From a virus, in the IMG/VR virus record IMGVR_UViG_3300026484_000053, positions 64,001-128,000 of that record: a stretch of 64,000 nucleotides of DNA; one strand, 5' to 3'. Below are positions 2,466 through 62,493 of this stretch, in pieces (the first letter of the stretch is position 1; each line of letters opens with the position of its first letter). Below the pieces are notes generated by a model. The model did not search any database and was not told the DNA's origin. It saw only the letters and a program-made list of their open reading frames with translations. The position numbers were made by a program, and so were the translations under genes.

Positions 2466-2532
2466 TTAATGCTACGTTTAATACTGCGTTTAATGCTGCG
2501 TTTAATACTGCGTTTAATACTACGTTTAATAC
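2466..2532. repeat. 12-bp imperfect tandem repeat (ttaatRctRcgt x5.5)
   Basis: Directly visible, immediately after the terminase stop. Confidence 0.9.
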
Positions 2533-4748
2533 ACATCTTCCATATCTCTTCTCCAGCCTGCACTGTCGAAGGGTTCTTCTGAAGCATGTTCTATATCTGA
2601 ACTAAATCCCATGTTCATAATCTTACACATTTCTAATTCTTCTTGTTTTTGCTCTTGCGCTCTTTGCTCTAAAAGATCTATAAATCCCTTAAAGTCATCA
2701 AAGTTTTTTATATCAAGCATAGGTGCAAATAACAGTGCTGTAGCCATAACCATGTCATCTTTATAACCGTCTTCAGCACTGTAACTTCCGTTTTTCTTTT
2801 CTATAAAATTAAATAATTGCTCTATAGTAACATGATCTTTAAGAATAAGCATATCTTCTTCAATAAATTTCTTTAAAAGACTAAGTATCTGTCTTTTAGT
2901 TTTTGTAGTAGTTCTAAAACCTAATAAGTTAGCACTTGCTTTTTTCTTTTTCTTTTCACGGAATATCTCACCTTCGTACTCATAGTTGTAATTCAGTGTA
3001 TCAAGTACGCCTATACCAATGTTATTCTCTCCTACTATAAGGGCTTTATTATAATAATTACCAAGATCAAATAATCTACCTGGCATTACCATATAAGACT
3101 CTGATATGTTGGCTGCTGCTACTTCCTTAAAAGGTATTGACGTCACGTCAAATACATGGACCCCTGCATCATCTTGGCCATCAATTTTAGGATCGAATGT
3201 AAGAATATAATGCTTACCTGATTCAGGTTCTTCAAATATTCTTAGTCCTTTAAATATTTTATCTTGTATTATTTCTTCTTCTGGTAATGCATTAAGACAT
3301 TTTAAAGCTTCGGCTCCTATTAAAGTAGCTGAAGAACCGACGAAAGCATTTTTAAAATTCTGTGCGAAATGTATTTCTCCATTTTTAGCTACTTGCTCTT
3401 GTTGAAATTGTTCAGGAGATTTTTTCGAACCGTCTTTATTCCATCTTGGTACATCTTTCCAAGATGCTTCAGCTATTCTGTATCCGTTTACTCCTTCTCT
3501 TGCTCCCTTAACAATTTGATAGAAATGATTTAATCCATTAGCTGTACTACTAAATATAATTTGTGAATCTTTAAACGATGCCATAGCTGGAGTAACAGAA
3601 TCCAACATATCATGAAATAGATTAGCTTTAATAAAAGATGCCTCGTCTATATATGCATATCTAAGAGAGTAACCCCTGAATGCGTCGCTATTTGAAGCAC
3701 TAATAAGTATTCTATTGTTATTAGTAAGTTCTATGGATTGCTTATTCCAAGATTTAACCCCAGGTTGCATCCAGATTGGTAAGTTCATGTAAATATCTCG
3801 TATTTTAGTTAATACTTCTTGAGCTAGCGATACTTTATTTGCTGCTACACCTATATTAATATCTTCTTTTATAAGAGCAATCCATAGCAAATAACAAGCG
3901 ATAGTAACTGTTTTACCGCTGTTATGACTAAGTATTCCATCACTATAAAACAACTCGTCTAAAGAGTCTAAAGATATATCATACATGTTTTCAAATACAC
4001 CTGTATGTTCTACACTTATTACTTTTGAATACCCTTCAGTAGTGATTAACTCCTGATTTAAAGAATTTTCTAAATGAACTTCTTCGTTACTAGAGTTAAT
4101 CACTACATGTTTAGGAGATCCAGATAAAGTCATACCATTTTCTAAAGTTATGTTTAGTACTTCGTATTTATGCGTTACGTAAACGTAATTTATATTAGAA
4201 CTTTCAGATGTACTTAAATCTTTATTAGTGCTTATGTTTTTACAGTTTAAAGTCCTAGAACTTATAAACGTGTCGTGATTTTCGATTTTAAATTCATTAG
4301 TTGCACTGTCGTATAATTCTTTAATAGTTATTTCTTCGTTGTTAACTTTTAACTTTGTATTTCCTGCAACGCACTGTCTAGGAAAAAATACTACAATGTC
4401 TTCTCCAGTAACTAACTGCTCTTCTAGATTTAGTTGATATTCTCTAGGTTCTGGTCTTGTTATTCCTTCTTTAGTAAGAATTCTGCAATAATTCCTTCTG
4501 AAATAGAAATAATCTTCATAAGCTGATTTAATTTCTATTTGCTGCATTTCAGACATAGGTATTTTAACATCTGCGCCTCTTAATCCATTTATTCCTGAAA
4601 AACTTATCTTCTGGCCAAACGCGTCTAAATAAAAACCGTTTTCATCTTTTTGCGTATCAATTGCTTCTAATAATTGATCTTTTGTTTTGTTGTCTAGTTC
4701 ATTACCGTTATTATCTTTAGCTAGAACGTCATATAATCCTTTTGACAT
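2526..4748 (-). CDS. gp17: Terminase large subunit gp17, intein-containing
   Basis: PREYQ (Q motif), RQ/SGKT Walker A split by the intein, YIDEASF Walker B, FSSTANG, nuclease DPKIDGQD and DDMVMA motifs. Confidence 0.97.
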   Translation of the reverse strand: MSKGLYDVLAKDNNGNELDNKTKDQLLEAIDTQKDENGFYLDAFGQKISFSGINGLRGADVKIPMSEMQQIEIKSAYEDYFYFRRNYCRILTKEGITRPEPREYQLNLEEQLVTGEDIVVFFPRQCVAGNTKLKVNNEEITIKELYDSATNEFKIENHDTFISSRTLNCKNISTNKDLSTSESSNINYVYVTHKYEVLNITLENGMTLSGSPKHVVINSSNEEVHLENSLNQELITTEGYSKVISVEHTGVFENMYDISLDSLDELFYSDGILSHNSGKTVTIACYLLWIALIKEDINIGVAANKVSLAQEVLTKIRDIYMNLPIWMQPGVKSWNKQSIELTNNNRILISASNSDAFRGYSLRYAYIDEASFIKANLFHDMLDSVTPAMASFKDSQIIFSSTANGLNHFYQIVKGAREGVNGYRIAEASWKDVPRWNKDGSKKSPEQFQQEQVAKNGEIHFAQNFKNAFVGSSATLIGAEALKCLNALPEEEIIQDKIFKGLRIFEEPESGKHYILTFDPKIDGQDDAGVHVFDVTSIPFKEVAAANISESYMVMPGRLFDLGNYYNKALIVGENNIGIGVLDTLNYNYEYEGEIFREKKKKKASANLLGFRTTTKTKRQILSLLKKFIEEDMLILKDHVTIEQLFNFIEKKNGSYSAEDGYKDDMVMATALLFAPMLDIKNFDDFKGFIDLLEQRAQEQKQEELEMCKIMNMGFSSDIEHASEEPFDSAGWRRDMEDVY
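3921..4373 (-). mobile_element. Mini-intein (151 aa, residues C126-N276) without homing endonuclease
   Basis: Begins CVAGNT, has block B-like SGSPKH and block F MYDISL, ends SHN followed by Ser(+1). Removing it restores FPRQ-SGKT. Confidence 0.93.
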
Positions 4749-7916: not shown

Positions 7917-8639
7917 ATGAACTTCAATCAAGGTAACACTAATAATAACGAGTATATGTTATTTAGATCCCAAACTGAGGAGCTAATAAACTTATATGGT
8001 GTACCAGTTACGTATATAAACGTAGTTAAGGAGAATCAAGATAAAGTATTTGGAGAGCATTCTCATATCAAAACTACTGACACTCACGAGTTATATATGC
8101 TTCCTGAAGATCCGCAAGGTTGGGAAGGCGACGGTGGACTTTTTAGTTCATTCGGATTAGAAAACTTAGATAGCGTCACGTTGTTTGTTTCAAGAAATGA
8201 TATGGAGAAAATCCATCCAGCTTTGACTGATAACGAATCGGGTGAATTACAGGTTAATGATATACCTAATGGTAGCTTATGCGTGTTTGAAAGTGACAGA
8301 ATTATGGAAGTGACTTCTTTCAAACTGCATGCAGAAGGTGCGAATAACATATATACTTCTAAATTAGGTAAAAACGTTTATAAACTTGTTATGACTACTT
8401 ATATGCCAAATGGAGATAACGTGTCTTCAGTTGATGATGTACAGGAGGACTATGAAAGTTTTGGAGATCTTGATAAAATATTCGGTAAAATAGCTGAAGA
8501 CAAAGTTGAGCAAGAGCATATTGCAGAAGAGAGAATTATGGAAGATGAAGTGGTTTATCCTGCTCCTGTTAGGAAAAAACCAATAAGAGCTAAAGTAAAT
8601 GAAATAAGTACATTAGGTGTATTTGGAGATTTAGACTAG
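7917..8639 (+). CDS. gp14: Neck protein gp14
   Basis: EELINLYGVPVTYI...FGE and GWEGDGGLFSSFGL..LDSVTLFVSR match the gp14 family. Confidence 0.85.
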   Translation: MNFNQGNTNNNEYMLFRSQTEELINLYGVPVTYINVVKENQDKVFGEHSHIKTTDTHELYMLPEDPQGWEGDGGLFSSFGLENLDSVTLFVSRNDMEKIHPALTDNESGELQVNDIPNGSLCVFESDRIMEVTSFKLHAEGANNIYTSKLGKNVYKLVMTTYMPNGDNVSSVDDVQEDYESFGDLDKIFGKIAEDKVEQEHIAEERIMEDEVVYPAPVRKKPIRAKVNEISTLGVFGDLD

Positions 8640-8652
8640 TTTAGACATATAA

Positions 8653-8661
8653 TGTTATAAT
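8653..8661 (+). promoter_or_regulatory. Extended -10 sigma70-type promoter (TGTTATAAT)
   Basis: TGnTATAAT upstream of ORF 8885. Confidence 0.5.
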
Positions 8662-8742
8662 AGCATAGATTTAAAATATAACCTTACGCTTCTACGCTTC
8701 TACGCGCTATATTTTAGTCACATTTTGGCCGCTTTTAGTTAG

Positions 8743-8750
8743 TATAAATA
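8743..8750 (+). promoter_or_regulatory. T4-type late promoter
   Basis: TATAAATA upstream of the structured element and ORF 8885. Confidence 0.6.
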
Positions 8751-8790
8751 ACATTATAACTGACGTACTTTAAAGTATTAACAAACATTA

Positions 8791-8868
8791 TGATTAGAGA
8801 TTTTAATTATTGGTAGCTCTCGCAGGTCCTACCAATAATTAAAGTGACCTGCGGTCACTCTCTTATCA
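8791..8868 (+). other. Multi-stem structured element (RNA leader or DNA cruciform)
   Basis: 15-bp perfect inverted repeat 8802-8816/8829-8843; 6-bp hairpin gtgacc-tgc-ggtcac 8844-8858; closing stem 8791-8800/8859-8868 (9/10 bp); loop 8821-8828 complementary to 8846-8853. Confidence 0.75.
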
Positions 8869-8884
8869 ATTAATAGGAGATAAA

Positions 8885-10861
8885 ATGAAAGCAAAATTAC
8901 AAGCTCAGTCAAATCTAAATTTTGACAATATAAGCTCATTATTATTATCTTCTATAAAAACTAACAAATTCAATCAAGCTAACAAATTCAAACAATCTAA
9001 ATATAAATCTAAATTAAAGAAAAAGAAGCATATTAATGCTATATACCCTAGTTTAAGCGTTCTTAAAATGCATAAAGAATACATATCAAGCCTAGATAAC
9101 GCACCGCAATCTAGAAGTATAGATATACTTATTGACGTTATAATCGATTTTACTAAAATGCACAGAACTAATCATATGCTAAGTAAGACTAACGGTCATC
9201 TGCTTTTAAGTTCTGAATTCATGAAAAAGTCAATTAGGCATTTCAACACCAGAAGCAACCTTACAGGTACTTTAAGAATAATCACTGGTTTTTATAACAG
9301 AACAAGAAAAGGTAACAATAAAGACAGACTTGGTGCAAGTACTTATACTAAAATAGAGCAAGAAGACACTACTTATGGGTGTGATAAAAATGTACATGAA
9401 GCAGTTAAAGAATATCTACTAAGTACTGATCCTAAAGCAGATGACCATTACGAGCAAATATCTAAACCTAAGGAAAAATCTAATAAAGACAGTAAGAATT
9501 TCCTTAAGGCAATATCAACTCCTGTAAAAGCCCTTAAGCAATGCGAACAATGCGAACAATCTAACCATTATGAGCAAGGTAGTAAAACGACGCAATCTAT
9601 AAAGCAATACAGATTTGACTATAAAGATATACAAGATGAGCTAAATGTTAATAGCTTAGCTAACAGACTAAAAGAAAAAGAACGATTAAATGAGTATATG
9701 AAAGAACAAGTACGTAACGACACGTATAAGCATGCATACCAAAAATACATTTATAAGAAAAATATTGCTGAAAATAACGAGATAATACGTTATTGTAAAG
9801 ACTTCTTTGCTAAACTAACTCTTAAAGGTAATATTCGAAGCACTCAGTATTATACAATAGACATAAAAGAAAGTACAAGTATGAGAAATGGTAGAGTATA
9901 TTCTTACTTTACGTCTTTACCATCTAAAGTAAGAGACTTTATATTTAATGGAATATCACTTGACGGTAAAAACATGGCATTCGCTACGTTATATAACAAG
10001 TACGCTAAAGAAGGACTTGATCTACCATATATGAAAGACTATGTACAGAACAGAGAAAAGCACATCAGACTATTATGCGACTTTGCATATATTGAAGCAA
10101 ACGTCCTAAACGGCTATGAAATGATAGAAGATACAGATTGTAGCGGCTATACTAAGCTTATAATATATGATTACGCTGGAGAAGTAAAAAAGCATAGAAT
10201 GACAAATCTGTATAAAAAAATGAAGAAAGAAGCTAAAATGTTATACTTAAGTGCTCTATTCGGATCTAATCTTAATGAACACTTCACTGACGACAGTACA
10301 TTAAAAATGTTAAGAAGAACGGCTACAGGTGTAAATTATGATAATCCTGCGCATCATTTTATTAAAAACCTTAAATCTGATCTTCTTAAGTGCTGCGCCT
10401 TTAGTAATGTAAAAGTTAAAGATCTGGCTAATGAATTTATGAAGATAGAGACAAGTATGATGAATGAAATACAAAATACGCTTAAGTCAGACATTAAAAA
10501 TACTATAAGAATACATGATGAAGTTATTATACCTTTTATACCTAGTAAAGGTAAAGATACTATAAGAATAAGTTCTATTAATAAAATAGAACAGATATCT
10601 GATCTATATAACGTAAAGATATCTAATGTAGATGATTTATACGATTATGCTTATTATCATAATAGTTGCACTACTTGTAGTACTTGTAGTACCCAATCAA
10701 CACCAGCAGAGATTAGTATAATCGAAAATAATAAAGTACATAGTATCATTAGTAATACAAAGCTATATGATAATGCTACGTATAAGAACTTTAGTTTCTT
10801 TGTTAGAGCTAATAAGCTAAATTACAAAGATAAAGTACCAATTTCGAGCTGCAATAGTTAA
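8885..10861 (+). CDS. Family-A polymerase / T7-type single-subunit RNA polymerase-like palm protein
   Basis: NGRVY, SLDGKN, KxxxKxxxxxxxFG and RIHDEV occur in the order of T7 RNAP/PolA motifs, with the canonical internal spacing of motif B; AGGAGA RBS. Confidence 0.6.
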   Translation: MKAKLQAQSNLNFDNISSLLLSSIKTNKFNQANKFKQSKYKSKLKKKKHINAIYPSLSVLKMHKEYISSLDNAPQSRSIDILIDVIIDFTKMHRTNHMLSKTNGHLLLSSEFMKKSIRHFNTRSNLTGTLRIITGFYNRTRKGNNKDRLGASTYTKIEQEDTTYGCDKNVHEAVKEYLLSTDPKADDHYEQISKPKEKSNKDSKNFLKAISTPVKALKQCEQCEQSNHYEQGSKTTQSIKQYRFDYKDIQDELNVNSLANRLKEKERLNEYMKEQVRNDTYKHAYQKYIYKKNIAENNEIIRYCKDFFAKLTLKGNIRSTQYYTIDIKESTSMRNGRVYSYFTSLPSKVRDFIFNGISLDGKNMAFATLYNKYAKEGLDLPYMKDYVQNREKHIRLLCDFAYIEANVLNGYEMIEDTDCSGYTKLIIYDYAGEVKKHRMTNLYKKMKKEAKMLYLSALFGSNLNEHFTDDSTLKMLRRTATGVNYDNPAHHFIKNLKSDLLKCCAFSNVKVKDLANEFMKIETSMMNEIQNTLKSDIKNTIRIHDEVIIPFIPSKGKDTIRISSINKIEQISDLYNVKISNVDDLYDYAYYHNSCTTCSTCSTQSTPAEISIIENNKVHSIISNTKLYDNATYKNFSFFVRANKLNYKDKVPISSCNS

Positions 10862-11809: not shown

Positions 11810-12010
11810 ATGAAACTTCAAACTTCTATTAATGGTACGTTAAAAGAGTATCTTCATCTTTTAATAGGTAAAAAATTCAAGAGTGCTTCAGGTAACATTT
11901 ACGAAATTAATGTTCTACCTTTCGCTTTTTATGCTATATCTTTTAATGATAACGTATTATTTACGTCTAACAGAGCAGATGTTATAAATGATTGGCTGTA
12001 CAGAAACTAA
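11810..12010 (+). CDS. Hypothetical protein (66 aa)
   Basis: Follows the promoter repeat; TAATG-coupled to the helicase. Confidence 0.55.
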   Translation: MKLQTSINGTLKEYLHLLIGKKFKSASGNIYEINVLPFAFYAISFNDNVLFTSNRADVINDWLYRN

Positions 12011-14700
12011 TGTATTTAACAATTTTTAACGCTATTAAAAGCACTAACAAAGCAAATAAAAAGCCTATATCTCAATATGATGACGAGTCATTTATTTTTT
12101 ATAATGTTTATTGCGCATCCTTAAGACAGTGTTTTAAGGTTCTATCTAACGAATACATCCTTAGCCAAACCATAAATATTGACGAACCTTTAAAACTGAC
12201 TAGAAGTGTAAAGGTTTTAAAAGAATTTAAAAGTGACAATTTAGAAATACTACCATTAGATTTAGATTACATTTATACGCAAGAGATGTGTTTAAAAGTT
12301 ATACAGTTTTTTAAAGATATGAACTTTAAATGTATATTAGGTAAAAGTAGAGGATTTAATAACAAAGATAAATTTACTCTTAAAGGATTTATCGTACTAG
12401 ACATTAAAAATGACAGAGCAGTAATATCAGGATTGCTAAATTACATCCAAACTTTAATGAATGAATATGGATTAGAAGGAGTTGAGTTAGACTGTGCTAT
12501 TAAAACAATAAATTCAGTGCAAAGCCCAGTCTTAAATAATGATGTTTTATATATTAATGAGTCAAGTAAAGCAAGAGTATTAAATAACACAGACTTTAAT
12601 ATTATAGAAGTGCAGTCTTATAACGATACGGTAGTTGATTTATCTAGCTTAAATACTAAAGAATCAGCATTAGACACTTGTTTAGAAATATTTGCACAAA
12701 AAGGATTTACAGCCGTATCGCAAAGAGAAGATACTAGCATTAATTTTAGTCATCCAAGTGAGAAGAAGTCTAAAGGTGGTTTCTTCTTCTTTAAAGAATC
12801 ACCAACTATAATGCACCATCCTAATAGTGCAAGGACTATTAATATAGCTCAAGAATTTAAACGTACCGCTATTGGTAAAGCATATTTTATTGAACGTGGA
12901 AAACTTATACAGAAGAATATGTTAGAAAAACCTGATTATGGTATATTCGTAAATGAAAGATACCTTAACGTAGAGCCTAAAATTAAAGAAATACAGGATT
13001 TTGTTCATAAAGATACAGAAGTTTTAAAGATAAAATCAGCTATGGGTACAGCTAAAACGAATATCATATCAGCAGTTATTAAAGAAGCTCAAATTAAAAA
13101 AGAAAAGTTAAGAGTTATTTTAGTGTCTAATAGAGTAAGTGTAGCAAGAGATTTTGCTGATAAGTATGAAGAATATAATATGTCATATTATAAAGAAGTC
13201 CAAAACAGTAAAACAGAGCCTTTTAATCTTATAGTACAGTTTGATAGCCTTTATAAATTTAAAGTGCATGAATATGATATTGTCATTTTTGACGAGTTTA
13301 TAAGTCTTTTATTGCATCATCAAAGTCCGTTAGGTACGAATGGTAATTTAAACGCTGCAAAATTCAGAGTTTTATTAAATAAGAAAATTCTATGTTGCGA
13401 TGCTTTTCTTACTGGATACGAAGACGTTTTCTTTAAAGACAGAAAAATAGTACAGTTTGCTAACAAATATCGTGACGATGTTAAACTTATAGAGTATAAA
13501 GATAAAGGTAGATTTTGTAAAGATATAATAAACAATTCACTTTCACTTAAAGAAGGCGAACATATTAGCGCATCTTTTACTTCTTTAAATATGCTGAAAG
13601 TTGTACAACAGGAGTTACTTTCAAAAGATATAAGGGTAATCAGTCTTACAGGAGAGACACCAGATACTACTAGAGAATTAATTTATAAAAGATTTAAAGA
13701 AGACAGCCACAACGCATTTCAGGTTATACTTTATACTCCTACACTTACAGTAGGAGTAAGTAATGTTAATAACGTATTACAGCACTACCATTATGACTCT
13801 AGTATGAGTTGTGACGTTATTAGTTCATTACAAATGATTAAAAGATCTAGAACAGCTAAAGAGATACGATTTTATTTAGAAGATAAAAAGGCAATTAACG
13901 AAACGTCGGCTGCTAAACTAAATGAGATAGCTAAAAACAATATTGTAGAGTTCTACAATAACAGTGATAAAACTCTTCTAGTAAAATTAAATGAAGATAC
14001 AGGAGAGGTTGAACTTACTAAATTAGCTTACTATCTTAACAATATTAATGCTTTTAGTAATCTATTAAGCAACGATCATGCTAATGCTTTTAAAGTTCTG
14101 CTGAAATACCAATTTAATGGCGGCTACGATTCTGCTGAAATTAATGAAGAAATTTATGAATTCGACTATAAATCAAAAATAAAAGAGATTAAAACTAAAG
14201 AAAAAGAAAACGCTGCTAATTTATTGGAAGAATATTCTTATTTTAATTATACTGAGCAAGATGTTAACGACGCTAAGTTTAGTACTATAGAACTTAAAGA
14301 CGAAGAAAAAGTTATGCTGATGAAAGATAATATCCAAAAGCTATTTAAGCACCAAATACCAAAACATATTTTAAATGAACTTGTTAAGATAGATCAAAAA
14401 GATAATATAGTTAGAAAGATTAAAAACTACCATTTGTTTAGTGGCGACAAAGATTATTTAATGTATAAGCTTAGTTTTACAGTAAGTAATAATCTTCATG
14501 TTAGTAAGCGATTCGTTAAAAATATTAAGATAGCTTGTGAAGTGAAAGAGTTAAAAGACGCTTACTCTAACAACGATATAAAACGTATAGAAAGTAACAT
14601 ACAAGGTTTTGGAGAATTTATAAAAGAAATAGGTTATGTTAAACAAAGAAACAAGTACAGATTAGATAAAAGAATACTAACATATCTAAAGTATCTATAG
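12010..14700 (+). CDS. UL9/origin-binding-protein-like SF2 helicase with putative N-terminal primase (AEP)-like domain, paralogue 1
   Basis: KSAMGTAKT, VSNRVSVA, FDEFISLL, CDAFLT, YTPTLTVGVS and LQMIKRSRT align in order with UL9-type motifs. The N-terminus has LPLDLD...GKSRG...KGFI. ATG at 12010 is preferred over the TTG at 11992. Confidence 0.8.
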   Translation: MYLTIFNAIKSTNKANKKPISQYDDESFIFYNVYCASLRQCFKVLSNEYILSQTINIDEPLKLTRSVKVLKEFKSDNLEILPLDLDYIYTQEMCLKVIQFFKDMNFKCILGKSRGFNNKDKFTLKGFIVLDIKNDRAVISGLLNYIQTLMNEYGLEGVELDCAIKTINSVQSPVLNNDVLYINESSKARVLNNTDFNIIEVQSYNDTVVDLSSLNTKESALDTCLEIFAQKGFTAVSQREDTSINFSHPSEKKSKGGFFFFKESPTIMHHPNSARTINIAQEFKRTAIGKAYFIERGKLIQKNMLEKPDYGIFVNERYLNVEPKIKEIQDFVHKDTEVLKIKSAMGTAKTNIISAVIKEAQIKKEKLRVILVSNRVSVARDFADKYEEYNMSYYKEVQNSKTEPFNLIVQFDSLYKFKVHEYDIVIFDEFISLLLHHQSPLGTNGNLNAAKFRVLLNKKILCCDAFLTGYEDVFFKDRKIVQFANKYRDDVKLIEYKDKGRFCKDIINNSLSLKEGEHISASFTSLNMLKVVQQELLSKDIRVISLTGETPDTTRELIYKRFKEDSHNAFQVILYTPTLTVGVSNVNNVLQHYHYDSSMSCDVISSLQMIKRSRTAKEIRFYLEDKKAINETSAAKLNEIAKNNIVEFYNNSDKTLLVKLNEDTGEVELTKLAYYLNNINAFSNLLSNDHANAFKVLLKYQFNGGYDSAEINEEIYEFDYKSKIKEIKTKEKENAANLLEEYSYFNYTEQDVNDAKFSTIELKDEEKVMLMKDNIQKLFKHQIPKHILNELVKIDQKDNIVRKIKNYHLFSGDKDYLMYKLSFTVSNNLHVSKRFVKNIKIACEVKELKDAYSNNDIKRIESNIQGFGEFIKEIGYVKQRNKYRLDKRILTYLKYL

Positions 14701-14781: not shown

Positions 14782-17403
14782 ATGCATGAACATAAAACTA
14801 AAATAACTTTATTTGACGGTCAAGGAGATACTAAAATTCCTTTTTCTACAAGAGAAGATGGATCTTTTATTTTTGCCACTCTAGAATTAAGTTACACTGA
14901 AATAGTAAAAGTTAAGCAAGATTCTTATTCCCTAGCTTATTCATATAATATACAAGAACCAATATTAACTCACAGAGCAAAATTATCAAACGTAGCGCCT
15001 ATAAATGATGGAGATATTGTAGATTCAATTACGTTTAATATTAAAGTCGAAGATATTAATATAGAAGACGCTATAAATGTACTTAGAAACACACAATATG
15101 ATATGATAGCACTAAAATCAAAGCAAGGATTAACTTGCATATTAAAAGTACAAATGGAACTAAAATATATTTACTACAGCATGATGGAACTTCAAAAATT
15201 ATTAGGTTCTCAATGTAGCATTAAAGTACCTAACATTTACGACATCGAGAAACCGTTTGAAAACCTTGAGGTACTTTACGAAAGAAACACTAATAAAGCT
15301 TTACATAATATAATGATAGAGAAAGAACTTGAAAACACATCTTCTATGACATTTATAGAGATATGTTTATCAGAATTTGAAAATATGGGATACGAACAAA
15401 CTAGCATAAAATCACTTAAAGGTAAACCAGGAGTGTTCTTATTTACTAAAGACCAGGATAAATTTCATTTTAACGAAGAATATCCCATTAAAATGCAAGG
15501 TATTTACGGTGCAAAATCTGAGTCAATATTTTATCTTATAAACAAAACAAAGCAAGGTAAAGAGTGGCTTCAAAACAGAAATAAAAAAGAACAGATAAAC
15601 GCTTTAGAAAATAAAAAATCTAAGAAAAGCAAAAATAATATCATAATAAACGAGAGATATCTTAAGGCTGAAGATTTAAAAGCAGTTACAAATAAATTCA
15701 TTCAAACTAAGGACTGCGTTTTAAAGATAAAATCAGCTATGGGTACAGCAAAAAGTGACGTTATTTATGATATTATAAAGCAAGCACATGAAGATGGCAT
15801 GAAGATTATAGTTGTTTCAAACAGAATATCAGTAGCGAAAGATTTTGCAGAAAAGTACAATATGGATATCTATCAAAATATGTACAACAGTTCTAATTCG
15901 ATAGTAGTACAGTTTGATAGTTTACACCGTTATAATCCAGCTGATTATGACTTAGTAGTATTTGATGAGTTTATGAGCTTATTGCTGCACCATAGAACTT
16001 CTTTAGGTACAAACAGTAACATTAACGCTATTAAATTTAAAATCCTACTCCAAAAAAGAGTAATACTTGCTGATGCCTTTCTTACTGGATACGAAGACGA
16101 GTTTATAAAAGATCGTAAAATTATACAGATAGAAAATACTTATAGAGATTGTACTGATCTTTTTAACTACTCTAATAAAGAGCACTTTATACAAACTTTA
16201 ATAGACGAGTCTCAAAAGTTAAAAGATGAAGAGCATATAAGTGCGTCGTTTACTTCATTAGCAGCATTAAAATTGGTATACTACTCTCTTAAAAAGAAAG
16301 GTGTAAAGGTAGTTAAACTAACAAGTGAAACGTCTGAAGATACAAGGCAGTTAATTTATAAAAGATTTAAGGAGCAAACGCATATTGCATTTCAGGTTAT
16401 ACTTTATACTCCTACACTTACAGTAGGAGTAAGTAATGTTAATAACGTCACTAAACATTTTCATTATGACTCTAGTATGAGTTGCGACGTTATTAGTTCA
16501 TTACAGATGATTAAAAGATCTAGAACAGCTAAAGAGATACATTTCTTTTTGCAGAATAGACAACTTCATAAAGACATCGATCTTGAAAGTATAAACAGAA
16601 GAGCTGAGCATAATGCTGTAAAATACTACGCTAATAAAGATAAAGCATTACTTTTAGATGTAGATTATGAAACAGGTGAGATGAAGCTTACACCTTTAGC
16701 GCATTATATTAACAAGATAGAAGTGTTTAACAATATCCTTATGAACAATCACAAGAATGCATTTTTAGTACTTCTATCTTACCAGTTTAATTCAGCACCT
16801 ATAGAAGTTAAAGGTAAAGTATCTTGGAAAATGAGAGATCTTACTAGACAAATAAAAGAAAAAGAATTACAAGACGCTTTAAGTGTTTTCGATAAATTTA
16901 AAGACGTTAAATTAAGTGATAAAGAAGTTAAAAGACTAAGATTTAAAACGTCAGAGTTATCAGATGAAGAAAAAGTAGCACAAATAAAACATGATATTCA
17001 ATCTATGTATAGCAAAGAAATTCCTCAAAAATCGCTAGACGAATTAACGCGTTTAGAAATAGAACAGAACTTTAAGTTTACTGATAAAGTTAAATTAAAT
17101 AAGATATTTCAAAACGAAGACGACAGTTATGCAAAATACGAATTATCTGAAGCTATAAGTAATAATATAGGAATGTTGCAAGATAATAATAAAGAGACAA
17201 TAAACTTTTTAAAATATCTTATTATTAACGATAACGCAGCATTAAAAGGATCTTATACTTTAGATGACATAAAAAGAATTGATTTCGAAAGAGGTAAAGG
17301 TTCTAAACTTGCTAATTTCTTAAAAAGCTTAGGATATACGTACAGCGCTGGTAAATGGGAAGTAGACCTAAGAGTTCTTGGTTATATTAAGTACCTTGAT
17401 TAA
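14782..17403 (+). CDS. UL9/origin-binding-protein-like SF2 helicase, paralogue 2
   Basis: Same motif series (KSAMGTAKS, FDEFMSLL, ADAFLT, YTPTLTVGVS, LQMIKRSRT); the N-terminus lacks an obvious DxD. Confidence 0.8.
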   Translation: MHEHKTKITLFDGQGDTKIPFSTREDGSFIFATLELSYTEIVKVKQDSYSLAYSYNIQEPILTHRAKLSNVAPINDGDIVDSITFNIKVEDINIEDAINVLRNTQYDMIALKSKQGLTCILKVQMELKYIYYSMMELQKLLGSQCSIKVPNIYDIEKPFENLEVLYERNTNKALHNIMIEKELENTSSMTFIEICLSEFENMGYEQTSIKSLKGKPGVFLFTKDQDKFHFNEEYPIKMQGIYGAKSESIFYLINKTKQGKEWLQNRNKKEQINALENKKSKKSKNNIIINERYLKAEDLKAVTNKFIQTKDCVLKIKSAMGTAKSDVIYDIIKQAHEDGMKIIVVSNRISVAKDFAEKYNMDIYQNMYNSSNSIVVQFDSLHRYNPADYDLVVFDEFMSLLLHHRTSLGTNSNINAIKFKILLQKRVILADAFLTGYEDEFIKDRKIIQIENTYRDCTDLFNYSNKEHFIQTLIDESQKLKDEEHISASFTSLAALKLVYYSLKKKGVKVVKLTSETSEDTRQLIYKRFKEQTHIAFQVILYTPTLTVGVSNVNNVTKHFHYDSSMSCDVISSLQMIKRSRTAKEIHFFLQNRQLHKDIDLESINRRAEHNAVKYYANKDKALLLDVDYETGEMKLTPLAHYINKIEVFNNILMNNHKNAFLVLLSYQFNSAPIEVKGKVSWKMRDLTRQIKEKELQDALSVFDKFKDVKLSDKEVKRLRFKTSELSDEEKVAQIKHDIQSMYSKEIPQKSLDELTRLEIEQNFKFTDKVKLNKIFQNEDDSYAKYELSEAISNNIGMLQDNNKETINFLKYLIINDNAALKGSYTLDDIKRIDFERGKGSKLANFLKSLGYTYSAGKWEVDLRVLGYIKYLD

Positions 17404-17916: not shown

Positions 17917-18543
17917 ATGCTTAGAAGACAACTACCACTACAACCAGACGGTTCAGTAAATAGATTCGACCTGCCAGAAGATTATACTGGTGGTGACGTT
18001 ACGATATTTGTTAATGGACAATTATTAGCTACAAGAGATATAGAAGATCACGTATACGGATTTGAAGTTAAACTAGATGACGAAGATAATGTTTATTTCC
18101 TAGAATTCTACACTGTACTTGAAGATGAAGAGCATCTATACGTTCTTTATGATGGTGAAGGTGACGGAAATTTCGCTGGAGAAGGTACAATCAGTGTTGA
18201 AGCAAATGTATGGCAACTTATAGCTCTTCCATTAGAAAACCAAGTATGGCTTGATGGTAAGATGCAGAAAAGTGATGAGCAAAGTACTATTAAGAATTGC
18301 GTCGTAGATCAACTAGAAGATGTATACGATAGACCAGCTGAAGAATTATTTAAAGTGGCTAATTGTGCTATAGGTGATGAGGGTGGACAATTAAGAAATT
18401 ATATACCTGGATTTACTAAAGATACTTCTGTACATAATTTCCCATTAGTATATATTGACGATAACGGTGATACAACTAGTAAGGAAATAGTAGGTTTTTG
18501 GATTAGATCCTTAGAAGAGTTTATTATAACTTGGAAAGTGTAA
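17917..18543 (+). CDS. Probable virion structural protein
   Basis: Acidic, beta-rich (DGSVNRFDLP...VTIFVNGQL); co-transcribed with gp3. Confidence 0.45.
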   Translation: MLRRQLPLQPDGSVNRFDLPEDYTGGDVTIFVNGQLLATRDIEDHVYGFEVKLDDEDNVYFLEFYTVLEDEEHLYVLYDGEGDGNFAGEGTISVEANVWQLIALPLENQVWLDGKMQKSDEQSTIKNCVVDQLEDVYDRPAEELFKVANCAIGDEGGQLRNYIPGFTKDTSVHNFPLVYIDDNGDTTSKEIVGFWIRSLEEFIITWKV

Positions 18544-62400: not shown

Positions 62401-62493
62401 AGATATAAACTTATGAATACTGCATATACTCCATATAGTGCATATACTCCATATAATGCATATAGTGCACTACACTATATTATAAATAATTAT

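Follow-up and report, generated by a model that had tools for sequence, protein, structure and literature searches.

Introduction

T4-type phages control replication genes by means of structures in the mRNA leader, as illustrated by the gene 32 pseudoknot, the gene 43 operator and the hairpins that hide the Shine-Dalgarno (SD) sequences of e and I-TevI (PMC3014915). The present analysis concerns a folded element at positions 8791–8868 of a 64,000-nucleotide stretch of viral DNA (the window; bases 64001–128000 of the 193.7-kb IMG/VR record IMGVR_UViG_3300026484_000053; 32% G+C), located on the + strand upstream of an orphan gene that encodes a 658-aa polymerase-like protein. The source is a T4-like phage from a metagenome, and the record encodes a T4-type portal, a neck protein and a large terminase. 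The resemblance to genes 32 and 43 lies in a structured leader that immediately precedes the SD of a T4-like phage gene of the replication type (PMC3014915); a loop able to pair with sequence 3′ of its own hairpin is shared with gene 32, and a polymerase as the encoded protein with gene 43. The design of the element, and not its sequence, recurs upstream of rare Klenow-like polymerase genes in several uncultured T4-like phages. The theme of an SD-controlling leader is a known one, whereas the architecture, a long perfect hairpin with an adjacent complement of its own loop, is more elaborate and differs from that of T4.

Two further groups of described systems are relevant. Multi-partner refolding leaders are found in the hok mRNA of plasmid R1 and in the IncIα/IncB rep mRNA, where a loop-to-ribosome-binding-site pseudoknot acts as activator. 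In common with the present element, they have segments with two alternative partners, and a loop that pairs with distal sequence near the ribosome-binding site of a replication gene. In the rep leaders, this pairing is governed by translation of a leader peptide and by an antisense RNA. The present element has no conserved leader peptide, and its loop complement lies 0–17 nt from the stem base rather than ~100 nt away. Hairpins also serve as initiation signals in single-stranded DNA (ssDNA), as in ssiA/ssiB of RSF1010 for the RepB′ primase, the complementary-strand origins of G4 and M13, and the promoters of the N4 virion RNA polymerase (RNAP), which are short template-strand hairpins of 5–7 bp with a 3-nt loop. 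The likeness to these consists in a hairpin with perfect Watson-Crick stems beside a dedicated polymerase or primase gene. In the ssDNA signals, however, the sequence or loop features recognised by the enzyme are conserved, whereas here conservation is confined to the pairing, which is interlocked with the SD. No description of such a leader was found in Rfam or in the literature searched.

Anatomy of the element

The element occupies part of the 245-nt spacer between the neck gene (7917–8639) and the 658-aa orphan gene (8885–10861, + strand), downstream of a T4-type late promoter box (8743–8750) and upstream of the SD of the orphan gene. The folded structure is real. Its core is a long perfect hairpin, P2, evident from direct reading, repeat search and folding, in which a 5′ arm (S1a, 8802–8816) pairs over 15 bp with a 3′ arm (S1b, 8829–8843) to enclose a 12-nt loop (8817–8828). 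This stem exceeds every other perfect hairpin of the window, and in the 193.7-kb genome just one is longer. The loop comprises a pyrimidine-rich 5′ part (8817–8820) and an 8-nt segment, S2a (8821–8828), that is exactly complementary to S2b (8846–8853) in the 3′ flank; a complement of this length was reached by 2 of 5000 flank shuffles. S2b in turn is held within a small hairpin, P3 (8844–8858), with a 6-bp stem and a 3-nt loop.

The structure is closed by the helix P1, which appears in the minimum free energy (MFE) fold of the 98-nt RNA between 8791–8800 and 8859–8868. It consists of 9 bp (8791–8794/8865–8868 and 8796–8800/8859–8863) with one T–T mismatch. The duplex has an energy of −9.4 kcal/mol, matched by 10 of 1000 shuffles. 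Its 3′ strand is an anti-SD segment with a choice of partner. When the ribosome-binding region is included in the fold, a helix emerges in which 8859–8866 pairs instead with the SD region (8873–8880, with GGAG at 8876–8879, 5 nt before the ATG at 8885), at a duplex energy of −8.4 kcal/mol. The 5′ strand of P1 is thus an SD mimic ("anti-anti-SD") that leaves the SD free when paired, and both alternatives are present in the folds. As a whole, the 98-nt RNA folds at −32 kcal/mol as compared to −14.7 ± 3.0 kcal/mol for dinucleotide shuffles (z −5.7, 0/200 as good), and the minus strand folded as DNA gives a z of −6.8.

These data bear out the first-pass annotation, made from the letters of this stretch, as regards the 15-bp stem, the small hairpin, the closing stem and the exact complementarity of loop and flank. 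It had further proposed that a pseudoknot and the small hairpin are mutually exclusive. That exclusion does exist, but the long stem is itself the chief competitor of the loop-flank helix. The pairing of anti-SD with SD, and a second copy of the element outside the window, had not been listed. A scan of 8500–9100 against Rfam at E-values up to 10 returned only chance-level miRNA and sRNA matches, scoring 14–17 bits against gathering thresholds of 57–86.

Recurrence of the design

The second copy is found in the same genome at 186925–187144 (L006:526–745), before a gene for a 683-aa protein. This protein is a very distant paralogue of the 658-aa protein (BLASTP E 0.048; E 8e-122 with the family profile). 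The paralogous leader presents, in order, an extended −10 block, a late promoter box TATAAATA, a purine-rich SD mimic, the hairpin, the complement, the anti-SD and the SD. The hairpin, a perfect 19-bp stem with a 14-nt loop, is the longest in the genome, and the 11 nt that follow the stem directly, at a gap of 0 nt, are exactly complementary to the loop. In an alignment of these leaders, the flanks are conserved and the SD regions nearly identical, while the 5′ arm and loop are recognisably homologous with several substitutions and a 2-nt indel. Since both helices are perfect in both copies, every difference in arm or loop is matched in the partner strand. These two polymerase leaders are the only places in the 193.7-kb genome with a hairpin and a loop-to-downstream complement of at least 8 nt.

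The upstream regions of further family members were read from the contigs encoding the seven relatives of the 658-aa protein. As a result, the design was found in six of the ten family lineages with upstream DNA, namely in the present copy, its paralogue, L008, L012, L013 and L018/L019. The structural conservation upstream of homologues that the first-pass annotation had put forward as a check is thereby observed, in the form of a recurring architecture with different sequence; four lineages are without it. The four homologue elements, which derive from other metagenomes, have the same design and unrelated sequence, and the proteins encoded behind the recurring design are only 16–24% identical to the 658-aa protein. 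In the present copy the stem is 15 bp, the loop 12 nt, the loop complement 8 nt and the gap between stem and complement 2 nt. The corresponding values are 25 bp, 29 nt, 12 nt and 17 nt for L008, 22 bp, 18 nt, 10 nt and 16 nt for L012, 17 bp, 11 nt, 6 nt and 0 nt for L013, and 19 bp, 17 nt, 11 nt and 0 nt for L018/L019. The element is always located between late promoter and SD, with a TATAAATA box preceding it in all four homologue loci, and the loop complement is always on the gene side.

Hairpins of the observed length did not occur in 200 shuffles of any region. In 5000 shuffles of the flank, the observed loop-flank complement was reached 0–2 times for each of five elements and 172 times for the one with a 6-nt complement. 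Across the 193.7-kb genome and all family loci, the combination of a hairpin of at least 12 bp and a loop-to-downstream complement of at least 8 nt was found only before polymerase genes. The loop sequences of the six elements are unrelated.

Individual loci show some particular features. At L018:478–655, the late box and long hairpin are partially duplicated in tandem, and only the gene-proximal copy keeps the loop-flank complement; a double substitution that distinguishes the 5′ arms of the tandem copies is compensated in the 3′ arm. In L008, TATAAATA boxes occur at L008:2–9 and L008:106–113, the second formed by the 3′ end of the 3′ arm of the long hairpin. Judging from the positions of these boxes, some L008 late transcripts could start downstream of the long hairpin and lack it. 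In L012, L013 and L018 the structured domain begins within a few nt of the inferred late transcription start.

Two competing pairing sets

In the four compact elements (the present copy, the paralogue, L013 and L018) the segments follow one another in the order SD mimic, S1a, pyrimidine-rich loop part, S2a, S1b, S2b, anti-SD and SD, and the gaps around S1b are 0–2 nt. This arrangement allows two sets of pairings. In set 1, S1a pairs with S1b and the SD mimic with the anti-SD, leaving the SD free. In set 2, S2a pairs with S2b, so that S1b is looped out, and the anti-SD pairs with the SD. As S2b begins 0–2 nt after a helix of 15–19 bp, the linker cannot span the stem, and from A-form dimensions we infer that the two sets are mutually exclusive. 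A different geometry is seen in L008 and L012, in which SD mimic and anti-SD make a separate second hairpin, the loop of which carries S2b at 16–17 nt from the long stem. In these two elements the loops could conceivably come into contact.

The anti-SD:SD pairing is present in all six elements, with energies from −7.0 to −10.2 kcal/mol and shuffle p-values of 0.026–0.066 each. An alternative, purine-rich partner for the anti-SD is likewise found in all six. In the four compact elements this partner forms the closing helix between SD mimic and anti-SD, for which the shuffle p-values are 0.007–0.089. Fisher combination gives ~2e-4 for each of the two pairing classes, closing helix and anti-SD:SD. 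The anti-SD:SD helices make use of G-U pairs available to the + strand RNA alone, which argues that at least this part of the element works as RNA. In constrained folding at 37 °C, set 1 is the more stable by 3.2–9.0 kcal/mol in five elements, and in L008 the sets are about equal. The best fold that contains the S2 helix also contains the anti-SD:SD helix, and so hides the SD, in five of the six elements.

The explanation that we put first, and to which we give about an even chance, is that the leader of the polymerase mRNA acts as a translational switch with two states, alternately exposing and hiding the SD. In the open state, P2 (8802–8843) would clamp the SD mimic beside the anti-SD, whereby P1 would tie up the anti-SD and the SD at 8873–8880 would be free. 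In the closed state, P2 would be opened, S2a would pair with S2b with the 3′ arm looped out, P1 would be lost and the anti-SD would pair with the SD. The controlled step would then be translation. Because the open state is favoured by 3–9 kcal/mol in five of six elements, the balance would presumably be set by a factor acting on the long duplex, by opening, binding or cutting it. Candidates are the polymerase itself (autoregulation in the T4 style), a single-strand-binding partner or helicase, and a double-strand RNase of the RNase III type. By analogy, a factor that binds, unwinds or cuts the duplex would be favoured. The first-pass annotation had left a choice between a cis-regulatory RNA switch and a substrate of the adjacent enzyme. 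A switchable element tied to a polymerase-like gene is indeed present, and the switch fits better than the substrate because in all six elements the anti-SD has two partners, one of which is the SD.

The likeness to T4 extends to the SD-sequestering leaders of e, soc, 49 and I-TevI, in which the SD pairs with an upstream complement and a TATAAATA-type late promoter is associated (PMC3014915). In T4, however, the late promoter lies inside the inhibitory structure and late transcripts are without the 5′ arm, whereas here the late box precedes the entire element in five of the six loci, L008 alone having a second box inside the 3′ arm. A further difference is that the anti-SD of the present elements has a second, competing partner. 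With respect to genes 32 and 43, the stems here are perfect and 15–25 bp long, as compared to a few bp in T4. Moreover, the element is not an H-type pseudoknot of the gene 32 kind: in four of the six elements (the present copy, the paralogue, L013 and L018) the flank complement follows 0–2 nt after a stem of 15–19 bp, and the loop-flank helix cannot form with the hairpin intact. Coexistence of stem and loop-flank helix is conceivable only in L008 and L012, with their 16–17-nt spacers, or with a partly melted stem. The gene 43 protein (gp43) operator has a conserved loop, which the present elements have not.

Several observations weigh against a translational switch. The preference for the open state by 3–9 kcal/mol means that the closed state needs an added factor. 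In the present copy, the full-leader MFE structure hides the SD even when P2 is formed, and the mean unpaired probability of the SD region is only 0.33 in the late-transcript model; the assignment of on and off states is consequently not a clean one. That the SD mimic pairs with the 5′ portion of the loop is no more than suggested by the data. Four lineages do without the element, of which P0002, P0006 and P0007 have short, plain leaders and L067 has an upstream open reading frame (ORF) of 67 aa and just a 7-bp hairpin. Finally, long stems totalling ~119 bp and loop-flank helices totalling 58 bp are free of G-U pairs and mismatches. Such perfect pairing is unexpected under selection at the RNA level, and would be expected with DNA-level pairing, a duplex-specific enzyme or quasi-palindrome correction. 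Correction of quasi-palindromes by template switching was first described in T4.

Other modes of leader control were considered and set aside. Against a thermosensor as a general explanation, the closed state becomes the more stable only above ~55–75 °C, and not in every element. Leader-peptide attenuation lacks a conserved upstream ORF. A difference between early and late transcript 5′ ends does not account for the design, as early and late transcript models give nearly equal SD accessibility for each of the two leaders of this genome.

If a translational switch is the right reading, the element would represent a new class of structured leader, absent from Rfam and defined by architecture alone, in which a long perfect hairpin, a flank-matched loop and an anti-SD interlock are combined. 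The architecture has persisted over very deep divergence, and the polymerase lineage that carries it is unstudied. The enzyme or a partner would be the likely opener of the hairpin, and the leader would then offer an experimental route to the function of the enzyme.

Alternative explanations

The long stems and loop-flank helices, all perfectly Watson-Crick paired and free of G-U, bring up the possibility that the element acts as DNA. The palindrome, extruded as a hairpin or cruciform or folded in displaced ssDNA, would then be a priming site, origin or promoter of the adjacent family-A enzyme, which is TV-Pol-like and possibly a primase-polymerase, with upstream transcription helping it to open. 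We regard this as a serious rival of the switch, though a clearly less likely one, and the same holds for the DNA-substrate role of the first-pass annotation. The pronounced folding of the minus strand as DNA is in keeping with it, as is the co-inheritance of the element with a polymerase whose viral structural matches include virophage replication proteins. The family-A fold class includes a proven primase, CCPol-MP, with a start site at a putative origin (PMC2579912, PMC7581432). In addition, two SF2 helicase genes are located downstream in the window, the paralogues have different hairpin sequences inside otherwise similar leaders, as cognate sites might, and several long homologue contigs break at or near the gene. 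A DNA site, however, does not predict the complementarities among anti-SD, SD and SD mimic, nor the G-U pairs that only the + strand RNA can make. The loops vary freely as long as the flank complement is kept, which indicates that pairing rather than recognition of the loop by a protein is conserved. Four polymerase lineages lack the element, and the neighbouring helicase genes are not conserved at the homologue loci. Should the DNA-level explanation prove true, the element would mark an initiation site of a new kind, used by a family-A primase-polymerase.

A role in mRNA processing or stability is distinctly improbable. The 15–25-bp duplex would in that case be a substrate of an RNase III-type enzyme or a protective hairpin at the 5′ terminus; cleavage or protection would set the life of the mRNA, and removal of the clamp would irreversibly change the partner of the anti-SD. 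Perfect duplexes of 15–25 bp are the kind that RNase III cuts, and in L012, L013 and L018 the structured domain would be 5′-terminal. Such a role accounts for the keeping of a very long perfect helix and is compatible with a switch. Processing alone, however, leaves the conserved loop-flank complementarity unexplained, and the 15-bp stem of the present copy is short for efficient RNase III cleavage.

Somewhat more doubtful again is a non-functional by-product, in which a template-switch (quasi-palindrome) error inserted an inverted local copy and palindrome correction keeps the arms perfect. Hairpin and loop-flank complement would both arise from a single event of this type. Where the gap is 0–2 nt, as in four elements, S1a together with S2b reads as the precise reverse complement of S2a together with S1b, which is the signature expected of a single strand-switch, and the perfect pairing would be accounted for. 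Against this, the design is found before proteins of only 16–24% identity to the 658-aa protein and in each of the two ancient paralogue groups, the copies are set apart by several compensated changes, the 193.7-kb genome has the element at its polymerase genes alone, and the SD pairings are tied in with it. Long perfect palindromes are also normally unstable, so that their persistence suggests selection. Judged from the arrangement of the arms, the origin of the design may be mutational, by strand switch, even if its retention is selected.

A very unlikely further possibility is a self-contained initiation cassette of polymerase and hairpin, in which the family-A enzyme would start de novo on the single-stranded loop of the extruded or displaced hairpin. 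The 6–12-nt product, matching in sequence the segment that adjoins the stem, would re-anneal beside the stem base (prime-and-realign) and be extended towards the gene. This would explain why loop and flank are exactly complementary and yet free in sequence, and why each paralogue has a hairpin of its own.

The two analogies drawn by the first-pass annotation, an N4-type template-strand hairpin promoter with a C(GCA)G triloop and a retron- or DRT-like template RNA, are scarcely credible: the minus strand of 8844–8858 does read as a 6-bp stem with a C-G-closed GCA loop, but the triloop hairpin is specific to this copy, with no counterpart in the paralogous leader or in the homologues checked (L013 among them) and no similar mini-hairpin within 3 mismatches elsewhere in the window, and hence is not a conserved feature, and the retron and DRT comparisons fail since the protein has a family-A polymerase fold without a reverse-transcriptase Pfam match and is not a reverse transcriptase.

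The adjacent polymerase-like protein and its family

The 658-aa protein has no match in Pfam or PHROG, and an exhaustive HMMER search of 1.84 billion representatives retrieved 7 distant relatives only. Word-based protein searches recovered the query alone, blastn and tblastn against cultured phages and single-protein scans of viral contigs gave no match, and the family profile retrieved nothing meaningful from PDB sequences. Degenerate motif scans of metagenomes added one truncated member (L022) and one further member (L067). In an alignment of 9 sequences, D360, K451, an M-x-x-E-T block and H544-D545 are invariant, and the D, K and HD residues are presumably the family-A motifs A, B and C.

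The AlphaFold model of the protein has a pLDDT of 59 overall and of 70–90 in the core. When searched against the PDB with Foldseek, the top 50 matches were all family-A DNA polymerases (Bst, Klenow, Taq), with E-values of only ~1e-3, and VIA-align Z-scores were 12.9 for Pol theta and 12.6 for Klenow (both over ~275 residues), and 7.8 for yeast mitochondrial RNAP. Virophage replication proteins are among the best matches of the model in the viral structure database BFVD, and we take these to be of the TV-Pol kind described in PMC2579912. The TV-Pol group of family-A enzymes are predicted primases (PMC2579912); a member of the proposed group, CCPol-MP, is a proven primase-polymerase with a preferred start site that maps to a putative origin (PMC2579912, PMC7581432). 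The predicted structure thus supports the label "polymerase-like", and the orphan gene may be described as encoding a predicted family-A polymerase fold similar to Klenow and TV-Pol. The second family-A-like polymerase, the 683-aa paralogue, has HDA rather than HDE at motif C.

The protein tree contains one moderately supported split (94/93) into two ancient groups and is otherwise barely resolved. Two phages each carry one member of each group, as judged from co-occurrence in samples. Members with and without the hairpin are intermixed in both groups, a distribution that fits a single origin followed by losses and exchange of leaders between paralogues equally well. The leaders are alike within a phage and not within a protein group. 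This likeness points to exchange between paralogues, and on sequence grounds suggests that the two paralogues with the same leader type may be co-regulated. The leader is thereby linked to a previously unrecognised family-A polymerase lineage, of which T4-like vent phages carry two ancient paralogues. The homologue contigs L008, L009–L011, L017, L018/L019 and L022 (12–43 kb, from different assemblies) end inside the polymerase gene or within a few hundred bases of it, which suggests an assembly-breaking repeat or palindrome, or low coverage.

Promoters and genomic surroundings

Two promoters precede the element. The first is a conserved block at 8640–8682 (+ strand) with the extended −10 motif TGTTATAAT at 8653–8661 and a −35-like hexamer at 8632–8637, which gives a sigma-70-type match with TG. 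On the minus strand only weak promoter-like matches were found. The 43-nt block is 93% identical to genome positions 186925–186967 upstream of the paralogue. In its 11-nt form the TGTTATAAT motif has 19 genomic copies on the + strand and 1 on the − strand, and of the 47 copies of the 9-nt core of the extended −10, 30 are intergenic and at most 150 nt upstream of a same-strand gene. The second promoter is the late box TATAAATA at 8743–8750 (+ strand), 135 nt upstream of the start codon. Intergenic placement at most 150 nt upstream of a same-strand gene applies to 35 of its 43 genomic copies, and the box therefore behaves as a T4-type late promoter in this genome. Its distance to the start codon is mostly ~20–50 nt, as compared to 135 and 120 nt for the two polymerase leaders, where the element is inserted between box and gene.

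A short promoter block shared by dispersed loci of one T4-like genome, here 43 nt at 93% identity, recalls the promoter-early/stem-loop cassettes named PeSLs (PMC2839356, PMC4122927). These are small composite terminator/promoter motifs of T4-type phages (PMC4122927). The present locus differs in that the hairpin is downstream of both promoters and has a different sequence in the two copies. The shared 43-nt block may allow the two paralogues to exchange their leaders. At 8683–8707, downstream of the early promoter block and upstream of the late box, is a short tandem direct repeat with units of ~8 nt, and a stretch 90% identical to this region is found on the minus strand at genome positions 18232–18276. 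A search for an origin by GC skew showed that the skew merely tracks gene orientation.

Downstream of the polymerase gene, 11992–14700 and 14782–17403 are two adjacent SF2 helicase paralogues of ~900 aa (phrog_10417, with weak ResIII/Helicase_C matches), which are located in the structural region between the neck and tail-tube genes. On the minus strand, 2526–4748 encodes the large terminase (740 aa), in which a weak match to an intein-splicing domain at residues 136–225 precedes the terminase domain; from this match, the terminase may contain an intein. Outside the window, at genome positions 62452–62492 (L007), a 14-bp perfect hairpin directly follows a stop codon. An exact 13-nt string is common to its 13-nt loop region (genome 62464) and to the anti-SD region of the leader before the 683-aa gene (genome 187119), and this hairpin may be a recombination remnant or a related site.

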